Shown one piece after another: positions 22,801 to 25,800 of a stretch of DNA of 64,000 nucleotides. Source of the DNA: Escherichia coli (GTDB taxonomy: Bacteria > Pseudomonadota > Gammaproteobacteria > Enterobacterales > Enterobacteriaceae); the NCBI RefSeq assembly GCF_045037415.1, contig NZ_CP173440.1, one strand, 5' to 3'. The stretch's first letter is position 1. Every line of letters starts with the position of its first letter. The position numbers were made by a program.

Positions 22801-25800
22801 AATGACACGTCCACAAATTACCGCGGTGGGATCGATATAGGCCTTTGTTGACACCACTGGGGTATGACCTGATGGGTTTTTACGTAACATTTTTACTTCC
22901 TTTCCAGTGAATACGGGCAACGGCATTATGGGGATGCAGGCTTTCCTGATGTTCAACCCTGATATCAAATGCTTCACAAAAGGGTGCACAACGAAAAACG
23001 TTATTGAGCCGACGGGCAGCATCTTCGCAAAACATCAGATTCTGACCGTTAGCCACCGCAAAAGCCTGTTCGTCGCTCCGCTTGACAACCGTTTGCACGG
23101 CTGTCCCGAGAGCAACTTCAGCATAATCAATCAGTTCAATCACAGGCAGTGATTTTGCTTCAGGATTAAGACGGATACTCACCCATGCCCAGCTTCGCTG
23201 GCTGTGCGGGGTTGCCGGCATTCCTTTCTCAACAAGCCAGTCGGCTATTTCTGCTGCCGGGAGCCTGTCGATCCTGTTACCAAAGTCTTTGCTAAACTGC
23301 AAACCCGCGACGTGGCGGCTAAGTGCAGCGGAAGCCGGGCAGGTGGACGAATAAGGGATACCCACTTTGAGGGTAACCGTAAAAGATTGCCTGAGTTCGG
23401 CGCTCAGAGTCAGAGGATAAGCTTTCCAGCCGGAGTGATTAGAATTTAACGACTTACGCGACAGTAACAAATCCCCTGAAATCTCAATACTGGCTTCATC
23501 ACTACGTCCCTGATGAGATACCAGAAATGCTTTCAACACATGTTGCAATAATGCCGGTGTGATTTCCCCTTGTGTCAGTTCGTCCAGAAGAAGATAAAGA
23601 CGAGACATATGGATCCCCTTTTCAGCTTCAGGTGAACTGAGAAGGTTTATGCCAGCATTGACCTTTGCTGATACCGGCCTGCCTGCGATGTCTATCGGCA
23701 GGTCAATTTGTTCCATGCCAACCCAGGATAATGACTCGCCCTCACCGTCACCCTTAGTGGACTGAATATCCGGTAGCATTCCGGGGCATAAGGTTTGTTT
23801 GGCTGCAATACTCATATATACCTGCCTGATCTGATATTTACTCTCATCCCTACCCTGCCCCCTGCCTGAGCCACCGCTTTATTTCTTTCGGTACTGAATC
23901 TCAACTTTTTCCTCCTTTGTTTTGGCTTCAATACTTAATTCTGCGGTGGGCCTGAGTAGCAGGCGTTGCAGACCGATAGGTTCGCCTGTATCCCGGCAGA
24001 AGCCATATTCTCCTTTTTCAAGCCGCATAAGCGCTGCATCATATTTCGGCAACAGGCGGCTTTCTCTGTCTATCTGTCTGAACAGCAGACGTAACTGCTC
24101 TTCACGAATGGCGATGTCACCTTCGTCACCCGTTTCTGGATTATCCTGCAGTTGTTGCTTCATCTGGTCTATATGATCAAGCACCTCCTGCCTTTCGTGG
24201 CGGATAAGCCGCCGGAAGTAGTCCTGTTGCACAGGATTCATGTAATCTTCTGGCAGCATCGCCAGGATTTTTTCTCGTTCAGCGCGGGTAGGTTTAGTCA
24301 TGTCCTGTACCGATAAAATTGCGTAATGAAACGTTATAACATAACATTAACTGCCGCTGCAAAATAACCTGTTAAGCCAGCCGGGCCACTTTCGTGGGCC
24401 AGGGATCGTGGAAAATCCCCCCCTGCTGCCACCAGAGAATTTCCTCTTCAGTGAGTAAACACTGGCGCAATGCGAGGGCAAAATCGTCAATTTCGCCGCT
24501 CTCGCCAATAACAGTCAGGCGGCAGCGCCGGTCACCAAATCTGCCAGGCATTTTTGCCAGTTGCTGACGGATAGCTGCGCGTTCTTCCTTTGTCAATGAA
24601 TTATCAGTGTGAGTCAGGACCCCGGCTTTCCAGTAGCTTATGAATTCGAGATTGATGCTCCCTGCTGCCTGGTTCCACAATAATGCCAGGTCATCCCTTC
24701 CCGGTAGCCAGAAAAACCCCTTGCTGCGGTAAACGCCTGCGCCCATGAAGCGATGGCAGGTATCCCACAGCCGCTGCGGATGAAATGGACGGTCATCCTC
24801 AATGACCCTCCACGAAATATCGTATTTTTTATCGGTTTCATCCGGCAAAACTGCGTCAATGGCATCCTGAAGCTCATCGATAAGTAACGCCACCCGATGA
24901 AAATCGTAATCCGGCATGGAAAGCAATTCATCCAGCTGTAAATTTCCCCAGGGCACGGCCATAATTGCAACCTGGGGATTAAGGGGATGTATGGCTCTGG
25001 CTACCTCAGTAACCACATAGAAGGGTAACCGGTCGTTTTTGGTTAATAAGAGCTTATTACAGAACATAATCTGTTCTGCCAGCAGGCTTTCCACTCCCCG
25101 GGTTCCTTTATTGAGGTGCTCCTGGAAAACCGGAATAAGCTTCTTTCCACCGTCGTAGTCATCATTAAGCATGACCGTATCAACAAGAGACAAAAATGCT
25201 TTGAGACTTACCTGGGTATGTTCTCGCAGATAGCGGACCAGGGGAAGAGGATGGCTGCTACCTGAGGTTTCCAGTAAAATAAAATCCGCAGACCGTTTTT
25301 CGAGCAGGTTTTTCAGCGCGGAATCCAGCTTCTGGATCCCGCTTCTGCTGCTGATACTGTCTGCTGAAATACTCACAAAATTGTTACTGGCTGCATCAAC
25401 GATTTCTGTGTTGGCTATCAGGACGCCATCCACATCAAGTTCACTCATGTCATTAACGATGACGGATACAGTCATTCGCCGTTTGTGTGCCTGTGTAAGA
25501 AGGTTTTTTAGCAGAGTAGTTTTCCCTGCCCCCAGAAAACCATTAAGGATAATGAGCGGTGTTCTTTTCATAGCATCCAGCCTTATGCCGCTAAACGTTA
25601 ATGCAATCAAGTTGCAATAATACCGGCTTCCTGCCAAAATTCAAATGACATGACTCGGAGGGGGAAATATGACAACACCAGTAGCCAAAACGTATGACTG
25701 GAAGCAAACGTTGCGCACACATGGTTTGCGGGCAACGCCATCCACCCTTGCTACACTGCAGTGCCTTGAACATGCCAGCCAGGCCATGAGCCATGACGAT

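Follow-up and report, generated by a model that had tools for sequence, protein, structure and literature searches.

The locus and the protein it encodes

The stretch of DNA studied here (the window) comprises 64,000 nucleotides of contig NZ_CP173440.1 from the Escherichia coli assembly GCF_045037415.1, and corresponds to a virulence plasmid of Klebsiella pneumoniae of the pLVPK type. It carries two copies of a gene for a COG0523 GTPase in which the cysteines of the CxCC zinc motif are replaced by serines; we refer to this protein as the variant. The features on which its description rests are the following.

24372..25571, minus strand: copy 1 of the CxCC-less COG0523 GTPase, 399 residues (open reading frame translation, Pfam, NCBIfam, plasmid annotation)
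25515..25541, minus strand: G1/P-loop GFLGAGKTT, residues 11-19
25347..25364, minus strand: loop A70-D-S-I-S-S75, replacing N-G-C-I-C-C of ZigA (ZigA alignment, translation)
25251..25271, minus strand: G3 motif E101-T-S-G104 (LLETSG at 99-104) followed by S-S-H107
25032..25043, minus strand: G4 motif T177-K-N-D180, an NKxD in which N has become T; (T/S)Kx(D/E) across the clade described below
24717..24728, minus strand: R282-S-K284-G285, the arginine-finger motif RxKG of the CobW_C domain
62666..63865, minus strand: copy 2 of the variant gene, with ADSISS kept; 6 amino acid and 31 nucleotide differences from copy 1
30714..31937, minus strand: a canonical ZigA with NGCICC, 30% identical to the variant (702 bits with NCBIfam NF038288, cut-off 600)

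Copy 1 is identical to a 399-residue 'GTP-binding protein' annotated at the matching position of NZ_CP072809.1. The original prediction held that the P-loop, the ETSG switch and a CobW_C-like end are kept, and all three are present as described: the Pfam profiles PF02492 (cobW) and PF07683 (CobW_C) match with E-values of 7e-26 and 1.5e-16, respectively. It was also right that no cysteine stands where CxCC is expected. The segment at that position reads NNFVSISADSISSRSG; the only cysteines of the protein are residues 171, 272, 350 and 371, with none in residues 1-170, and because there is none between the P-loop and ETSG, the cysteines have not simply shifted within the loop. In the alignment with the neighbouring ZigA, N-G-C-I-C-C corresponds to A70-D71-S72-I73-S74-S75, so that the replacement is CICC to SISS (CxCC to SxSS), with all three cysteines changed to serine and the middle isoleucine retained; the label 'SxDS' first given to it was out of register by three residues. 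The motif coordinates were confirmed by translating the DNA. The codons of the three loop serines are AGT, AGC and AGC, each a single base away from the TGY codons of cysteine, and AGY prevails in orthologs.

The TKND motif was considered as a disabled G4 element, a view that we rejected because YjiA, a proven GTPase, has TKTD at the aligned position. YjiA is also the best match in the Protein Data Bank (PDB) to the AlphaFold2 model of the variant, which has a predicted local distance difference test (pLDDT) score of 86 overall and of ~91-92 around the SISS loop, where the usual strand-loop-helix is found. The region of the PETEEY linker of ZigA aligns with PDETDKKYDI in the variant; this region varies within the clade, and the pLDDT falls below 50 at residues 244-247.

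Of the features by which COG0523 proteins are recognized, the P-loop G-domain, the ExxG and (N/T)KxD motifs and a CobW_C domain with RxKG are all present and the CxCC motif is absent; judged from its sequence, the variant is nevertheless a COG0523 relative by homology and architecture. No NCBIfam model reaches its cut-off on it: the scores are 203.4 bits for ZigA (NF038288, cut-off 600), 73.7 bits for CobW (TIGR02475, cut-off 332) and 71.8 bits for Mrf (NF047431, cut-off 375), which makes ZigA the closest curated family. The NCBI annotation pipeline names the protein 'GTP-binding protein' or 'CobW family GTP-binding protein'.

A clade of COG0523 relatives without CxCC

The exact variant protein corresponds to a K. 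pneumoniae cluster (P0001, 100% match) with 1921 member sequences, while truncated or internally deleted alleles (P0003, P0018) occur as rare single-member clusters; the pseudogenization in homologs that might have undermined the original prediction is thus confined to rare defective versions set against 1921 intact ones. Among the 120 closest clusters at the 90% level (53-100% identity to the variant), from Klebsiella, Pectobacterium, Kosakonia, Erwinia, Pantoea, Brenneria, Raoultella, Obesumbacterium, Rouxiella, Vibrio, Shewanella and Celerinatantimonas, every one lacks CxCC, and most read NF(V/I)(S/T)(I/L)SADSISS. An exhaustive search of 50%-identity representatives recovered CxCC-less proteins down to ~34% identity (with GSISS, GSISG, GTLSS or GSVGG in the loop), and canonical NGCICC proteins appear from ~32% identity downward. 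With a profile built from the distant members, all 113 newly retrieved motif-bearing sequences proved to lack CxCC and to have RxKG. Taken as a whole, the group includes Enterobacterales, Vibrio, Shewanella, Alphaproteobacteria, Verrucomicrobiota and Bacteroidota, with Prosthecobacter, Luteolibacter, Chthoniobacterales, Bacteroidota, Paracoccus, Epibacterium and Celeribacter as the named distant sources. When 81 representatives were placed in a neighbor-joining tree, those without CxCC fell into one clade, apart from the CxCC-bearing ZigA-like proteins. The suggestion that this is a subfamily worth defining is therefore well founded.

Conservation was assessed in 259 full-length sequences kept as CxCC-less relatives. 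All 259 retain the GTPase and RxKG residues, with K17, T18, E101, G104, K178, R282, K284 and G285 conserved at ~100%. Because the invariant residues of the P-loop, G3 and G4 are kept together with the RxKG arginine finger, the GTPase engine, including its built-in activator, appears to be conserved. In the loop itself, S72 (85%) and S74 (90%) are conserved across the clade. Asp71 is replaced by Gly in 129 of 143 distant members, where Ser75 is also mostly Gly; on these grounds we discarded the idea that the loop forms a conserved hard-metal site of Asp and Ser.

Compared with ZigA-like proteins, the clade has lost the three cysteines and the asparagine that precedes them, the Asn of NKxD and the PETEEY linker; the acidic residues D81, D124 and E169, each conserved at 86% or more in ZigA-like proteins, have disappeared along with the cysteines. 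The Glu that follows G3, conserved at 92% in CxCC-bearing relatives, has become a His (His107) that is conserved at 92% in the clade. Further conserved gains are Asp259 (92%), Cys371 (95%), Cys350 (76%) and a C-terminal DPWP motif. His264 is present in 100% of the clade and is equally conserved in ZigA-like proteins.

In 37 of the 113 distant CxCC-less proteins G4 reads TKxE instead of (T/S)KxD. The guanine-specifying Asp is thus Glu in this sub-branch, which might alter its nucleotide preference. As to whether the clade is 'subfamily 11' of Haas et al. (PA5532), no protein of P. aeruginosa, P. fluorescens or P. putida was found among the named matches, and the papers in which PA5532 is mentioned are silent on its motif.

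The second copy and selection

The second copy was predicted to differ from the first at about six residues and to keep the same substitution. It differs at exactly six (T34A, A95P, T119P, K155R, P243S and T246P), and ADSISS is retained. The duplicated DNA spans 24357-25706 and 62651-64000, the latter reaching the edge of the window. The two copies are separated by 25 synonymous and 6 non-synonymous changes (dS 0.098, dN 0.0065, dN/dS 0.067); on this basis they appear to have diverged long before they were brought together on one plasmid, both of them under purifying selection. Ratios of 0.05-0.18 were obtained for four unsaturated pairs of orthologs; these pairs and the two copies are the source of our dN/dS values, as most comparisons between species were unusable owing to saturation of dS. 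Together with the lack of CxCC in all of the 120 closest clusters, the ratio of 0.067 bears out the view that the variant is not a random lesion, and the relaxed selection that would have spoken for decay is not seen in the ortholog pairs that gave a ratio.

A decayed second low-zinc island, in which copy 2 alone is intact, occupies positions 57300-64000 of the window. Its other elements are listed here.

57545-57559, strand not given: perfect Zur box preceding the COG0523 pseudogene
57564-57782, strand not given: YjiA/YeiR-like COG0523 pseudogene, ENEFGE...NNGCICCTVRGD with stop codons (translation)
57818..57986, plus strand: N-terminal stub left of a third variant-like gene, covering residues 1-57 with 60-64% identity (tblastn, translation)
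60974-61144, strand not given: hisI fragment, 92% identical to 32017-32187
61133-61549, strand not given: C-terminal fragment of zigA, 93% identical in amino acids

A cysteine motif had been quoted for the neighbor at 30714..31937 and for the pseudogene near 57.6 kb: the first carries the motif (NGCICC), and the string in the second reads NNGCICCTVRGD, which is close to the one quoted and not identical to it. Just downstream of copy 2, at 62405-62540, lies a perfect tandem repeat of 8 bp (ATGGAAAT x 17), in the place where copy 1 has a Zur box and dksA2. The plasmid record that matches this part of the window aligns in two pieces, spanning 40 bp less than the 6.7-kb query that holds the repeat region. 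In the full plasmid, copy 2 stands between a gene for a SAM-dependent methyltransferase and a truncated copy (128 residues) of the Fur-family gene found beside copy 1. Beyond copy 2 and the right end of the window, the region 131000-150000 of NZ_CP072809.1 continues with this truncated Fur-family gene, a c-type lysozyme inhibitor, def and iucABCD-iutA. The product of def, peptide deformylase, is a metalloenzyme.

The low-zinc island and the genomic context of orthologs

The 11-kb neighborhood of copy 1 is 100% identical to large plasmids of K. pneumoniae that are virulence/resistance hybrids, for instance phvKpST395_NDM1_1657, and is found in ~660 Klebsiella plasmid records. The variant resides here in a plasmid island of low-zinc genes (hemB2, pyrC2, cam, folE2, dksA2, cysS2, zigA, hisI2). 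Before the variant the order is hemB, pyrC2, an M14 peptidase, a thrS fragment, DUF1460, a gamma-carbonic anhydrase, folE2 and dksA2; after it come a divergent Fur-family repressor, cysS2, an oxidoreductase, a FeoB-like protein, zigA, hisI2 and a second Fur/Zur-like repressor. That pLVPK carries an island of zinc-sparing paralogs was already recorded by Haas et al. in 2009 (PMC2770081), in whose list of Zur-regulated COG0523 genes the variant does not figure. Its nearest companion is the gene directly downstream.

23879..24301, minus strand: dksA2, a Cys-poor DksA paralog (NCBIfam DksA, 127.5 bits)

We gathered the context of the variant from contigs encoding members of the clade, for a total of 14 loci including the window; a scan of contigs with a generic P-loop pattern returned mostly ordinary CxCC proteins and three loci of clade members. 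Because low-zinc genes lie within 10 kb in 9 of the 14 loci, and zigA in 6, the link to the zinc-starvation response is robust. K. variicola and Kosakonia share the layout seen here, in which the variant is divergent from the Fur-family gene and followed by dksA2, folE2 and cam; in Brenneria izadpanahii and an Erwiniaceae strain the variant and dksA2 stand as a pair on their own. The arrangement is folE2-cam-variant-orf-pyrC2 in Obesumbacterium; in Pectobacterium zigA is directly upstream of the variant, beside zinT/znuA; in Paracoccus zigA is divergent from hisI2-orf-variant; and in Celeribacter the variant's divergent neighbor is a Zur-like gene, while zigA, hisI2 and a thrS paralog are close by. 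The most frequent immediate partner is dksA2, and no single neighbor is constant enough to name a client.

Some further features of the window were noted as well. The thrS paralog at 19062-20099 (minus strand) is annotated with just 333 residues, and since its counterparts in the K. variicola and Kosakonia islands have 650-682 residues, the plasmid copy looks truncated. A Zur box at 27622-27636 is directly upstream of an operon (27656-30447) for a pyridine-nucleotide-disulfide oxidoreductase with a Cys-rich tail (CCADEDCAC) and a FeoB-like membrane protein with GTPase and Gate domains; this pair, which is kept in the K. variicola and Kosakonia islands, is possibly an import system, of unspecified type, for zinc or another metal. 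A further Zur-box match (36538-36552) is found at the start of the cluster 36512-42819, which encodes an MFS transporter, an SBP_bac_5 binding protein, a fused permease and two ABC ATPases. This ABC/MFS/SBP_bac_5/permease set also adjoins the variant-dksA2 pair in Brenneria izadpanahii, and the cluster may be a zinc-regulated uptake system of metallophore or peptide type.

Regulatory sites

Matches to the Zur box are in excess in the window (14, versus 1.8 expected). The sites and regulators that surround the variant are as follows.

24332..24346, minus strand: Zur box TGTTATGTTATAACG between the stop codon of the variant and dksA2
25644-25617 (feature 25601..25644), minus strand: promoter-like site upstream of copy 1, with -35 TTGAAT and -10 TATTAT
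25601-25620, minus strand: operator TTATTGCAACTTGATTGCAT overlapping the -10, conserved upstream of the K. variicola and Kosakonia orthologs
63895..63914, minus strand: second occurrence of operator TTATTGCAACTTGATTGCAT, upstream of copy 2
25669..26121, plus strand: Fur-family repressor of 150 residues, candidate regulator of the variant, from which it is divergent; followed by cysS2
32496-33020, plus strand: second Fur/Zur-like repressor, divergent from hisI2-zigA
32395-32414, strand not given: Zur box in the intergenic region common to the second repressor and hisI2-zigA

The site at 24332-24346 is the one listed for pLVPK by Haas et al. in 2009 as LV190 dksA2-folE2-cam (PMC2770081). Operator TTATTGCAACTTGATTGCAT occurs only twice in the window, once ahead of each variant copy, and its conserved form, TATTATTGCAACTnnATTGCAT, in which ATTGCA is repeated 11 bp apart, is also present in K. 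variicola and Kosakonia. The product of the divergent gene is annotated as 'transcriptional repressor' and has weak NCBIfam matches to Fur/Zur/PerR; its synteny with the variant extends to K. variicola and Kosakonia. With the gene at 32496-33020, the island has two Fur-family regulators of its own. We infer from this arrangement that in the Klebsiella and Kosakonia islands it is the repressor of 150 residues, and not Zur, that would control the variant; repressor and operator TATTATTGCAACTnnATTGCAT look like an island-specific metal-regulation system distinct from the Zur box. In Brenneria izadpanahii and the Erwiniaceae strain, perfect Zur boxes (TGTTATGTTATAACA) are located 117 and 46 bp, respectively, upstream of the variant, which is predicted to be under direct Zur control in these organisms.

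Relationship to known systems

ZigA is the system that the variant resembles most. Both are G3E GTPases with a CobW_C domain and of nearly the same length (399 residues for the variant, 407 for ZigA), they share a VNDMSE switch I, ExxG, RPFHP and RSKG, they are co-resident in the low-zinc island, and no other curated family matches the variant as well. They differ in that identity is only 30%, and that the variant has SISS for CICC, His for the Glu after G3 and TKxD for NKxD, lacks PETEEY, D81, D124 and E169, and has a C-terminal DPWP motif of its own. In ZigA, Zn or Co at the CICC site stimulates the GTPase 5-10 fold (PMC11052692), the conserved PETEEY linker includes a Glu that gates Zn-dependent hydrolysis (PMC13001444), and the RxKG arginine finger is required for the GTPase activity of both ZigA and MigC (PMC13001444). 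In the ZigA of Acinetobacter baumannii (AbZigA), E113, which is equivalent to His107 of the variant, occupies a position analogous to that of a Ni(II)-thiolate ligand of HypB, and its replacement by Ala did not lower the affinity for Zn (PMC11052692).

A CICC-to-SISS mutant of AbZigA, in which the high-affinity thiolate metal site is abolished (PMC11052692), has the same three Cys-to-Ser changes and the same middle residue as the variant, and thereby supports the view that the canonical site is lost in the latter. The mutant is a laboratory loss-of-function control, whereas the natural clade adds His107, Cys371, loss of the acidic patch and the action of selection. The mycobacterial ZigA paralogs Mrf and Rv0106 are likewise COG0523 members of the Zur regulon without a supposedly defining feature, and Mrf has a non-chaperone role, the recruitment of a ribosome hibernation factor (PMC11052692; PMC2770081); these paralogs, however, have lost GTPase loops, while the variant keeps the GTPase and loses the metal site. 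Another parallel is offered by DksA2 and by the C-minus ribosomal proteins L31B and L36B, in which the cysteines of a Zn site are replaced and which belong to Zur-regulated islands (PMC11672702), the variant itself adjoining dksA2; in those proteins Zn is structural and function is preserved without it, whereas for a ZigA-type parent Zn is both cargo and regulator. Finally, E. coli YjiA (PDB 1NIJ, 4IXM, 4IXN) is the best structural match of the model and shares a TKxD G4 with the variant, but is only 18% identical; it possesses CxCC together with a switch I of the ENEFGE type, and the C-terminal insertion of the ZigA type is absent from it.

Interpretation and alternative explanations

On the whole, we think that the variant is probably a working GTPase that takes part in the response to zinc starvation and no longer has the thiolate zinc site. 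It would descend from a ZigA-like branch in which the three zinc-binding cysteines were exchanged for serines, and would cycle GTP with neither a need for Zn(II) at the canonical site nor activation by it; as such it would be a zinc-sparing, 'C-minus' counterpart of ZigA, parallel to DksA2 and to the C-minus ribosomal proteins. Its GTP-driven job would be done during zinc starvation, when the site of ZigA itself would be empty, and may concern the alternative enzymes of the island or DksA2/RNA polymerase, or be carried out alongside ZigA. In Klebsiella and Kosakonia its expression would be controlled by the divergent Fur-family repressor, acting through the operator that overlaps the -10.

Several observations weigh against this interpretation. 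Both GTPase activity and the absence of metal binding are read from sequence for every member of the clade, and the tree that unites the clade is a simple neighbor-joining tree with no support values. His107 (92%) and Cys371 (95%) are potential ligands whose conservation is specific to the clade. In ZigA there is a second metal site, of low affinity and without cysteines, and the apo-protein's G-domain is molten, requiring both Zn and GTP in order to fold (PMC11052692). As for the link to zinc, neither variant copy in the window has a Zur box upstream, and there are no zinc genes nearby in 5 of the 14 loci (Vibrio, Celerinatantimonas, Prosthecobacter and two metagenome bins).

Some of these points would fit a metallochaperone that uses another site, for example one formed by His107, beside switch II, with carboxylates or serines, or one in the C-terminal domain that involves Cys350, Cys371, His264 or Asp259, to deliver a metal other than Zn (Fe2+, Mn2+ or Co2+) to the metal-flexible alternative enzymes of the island (FolE2, gamma-carbonic anhydrase, PyrC2, HisI2). 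The conservation of these residues, with a His in place of a Glu at the position analogous to the Ni ligand of HypB (PMC11052692), and the operon partners folE2-cam in Obesumbacterium and hisI2 in Paracoccus are all in keeping with such a role. We nonetheless regard it as unlikely: the glycines that stand for Asp71 and Ser75 in distant members leave the loop with no conserved hard-metal site, His264 is conserved just as well in ZigA-like proteins, no new Cys/His cluster is evident from the sequence, and several conserved acidic residues near the site have been lost, not gained. It is more doubtful still that the variant is a partner or regulator of ZigA, that is, a zinc-blind paralog that forms heterodimers with it, competes with it for clients or gives it an activating C-terminal domain in trans. 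The 6 loci with zigA within 10 kb, among them those where it is directly upstream (Pectobacterium) or divergent from or beside the variant (Paracoccus, Celeribacter), and the activation of G-domains by C-terminal domains in trans in vitro (PMC13001444) would agree with this proposal; but only C-terminal domains that were cognate, or much like the cognate one, gave that activation (PMC13001444), while the variant and ZigA are only 30% identical, zigA is missing from the surroundings of the variant in the other 8 loci, the two-gene variant-dksA2 units among them, and the current view is that COG0523 proteins work as monomers (PMC11672702).

That the variant is a decaying, functionless paralog, a relic carried along in a mobile island, is very improbable. 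A motif described as family-defining is gone, the second island around copy 2 is visibly decayed, with fragments of zigA, hisI and COG0523 genes, and there are a few truncated or internally deleted alleles (P0003, P0018). Yet copy 2 is intact amid these fragmented neighbors, the 25 synonymous versus 6 non-synonymous changes (dN/dS 0.067) point to selection on the protein, full-length homologs with invariant GTPase and RxKG residues occur in several phyla, and the intact allele accounts for 1921 member sequences. The data on selection and conservation therefore contradict this explanation.

A stronger form of the interpretation that we prefer, a functional GTPase without the thiolate zinc site, can be put forward tentatively: the clade may be the zinc-independent version of a zinc metallochaperone, a natural separation-of-function allele, in which case COG0523 GTPases would have a GTP-driven activity for which no bound metal is required.

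Significance for the COG0523 family and for Klebsiella

In reviews and research papers up to 2026, the hallmark of a COG0523 metallochaperone is an invariant CxCC zinc site (PMC2770081, PMC9164220, PMC11672702, PMC13001444), which has been called 'family-defining and invariant' (PMC13001444) and said to be in 'all members' of COG0523 (PMC2770081). At least one analysis of the family discarded the sequences without CxCC (PMC10642216), a practice that may explain why the clade escaped notice; phrase searches of the accessible literature found no description of it. The CICC-to-SISS change found in the clade is the very one that serves in this field as a metal-site-dead control. As a large group under selection and linked to zinc islands, which has the GTPase and the arginine finger without the cysteines, the clade offers a natural way to examine the role of the GTPase cycle independently of metal binding.

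There is also a practical side to these results. In papers on plasmid epidemiology, 'cobW' is a hypervirulence-associated marker 'involved in cobalamin biosynthesis', and is drawn together with the two genes that stand on either side of copy 2 near iucABCD, those for the lysozyme inhibitor and the SAM-dependent methyltransferase. Judged by these neighboring genes, and not by the sequence of the marker, 'cobW' is most probably copy 2 of the variant. The label is then a misnomer, because the variant scores well below the CobW cut-off (73.7 versus 332 bits), and it can be corrected: the protein is neither CobW nor a canonical zinc chaperone.

If the clade is indeed the zinc-independent version of a zinc metallochaperone, its activity might consist in holding or remodelling apo-clients or alternative enzymes, or in acting on DksA2/RNA polymerase or the ribosome, and the Glu-to-His swap by switch II would replace zinc in coupling the loop to the nucleotide state. 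Hypervirulent K. pneumoniae would then have two expressed copies of such a protein as a plasmid-borne defense against the withholding of zinc by the host.

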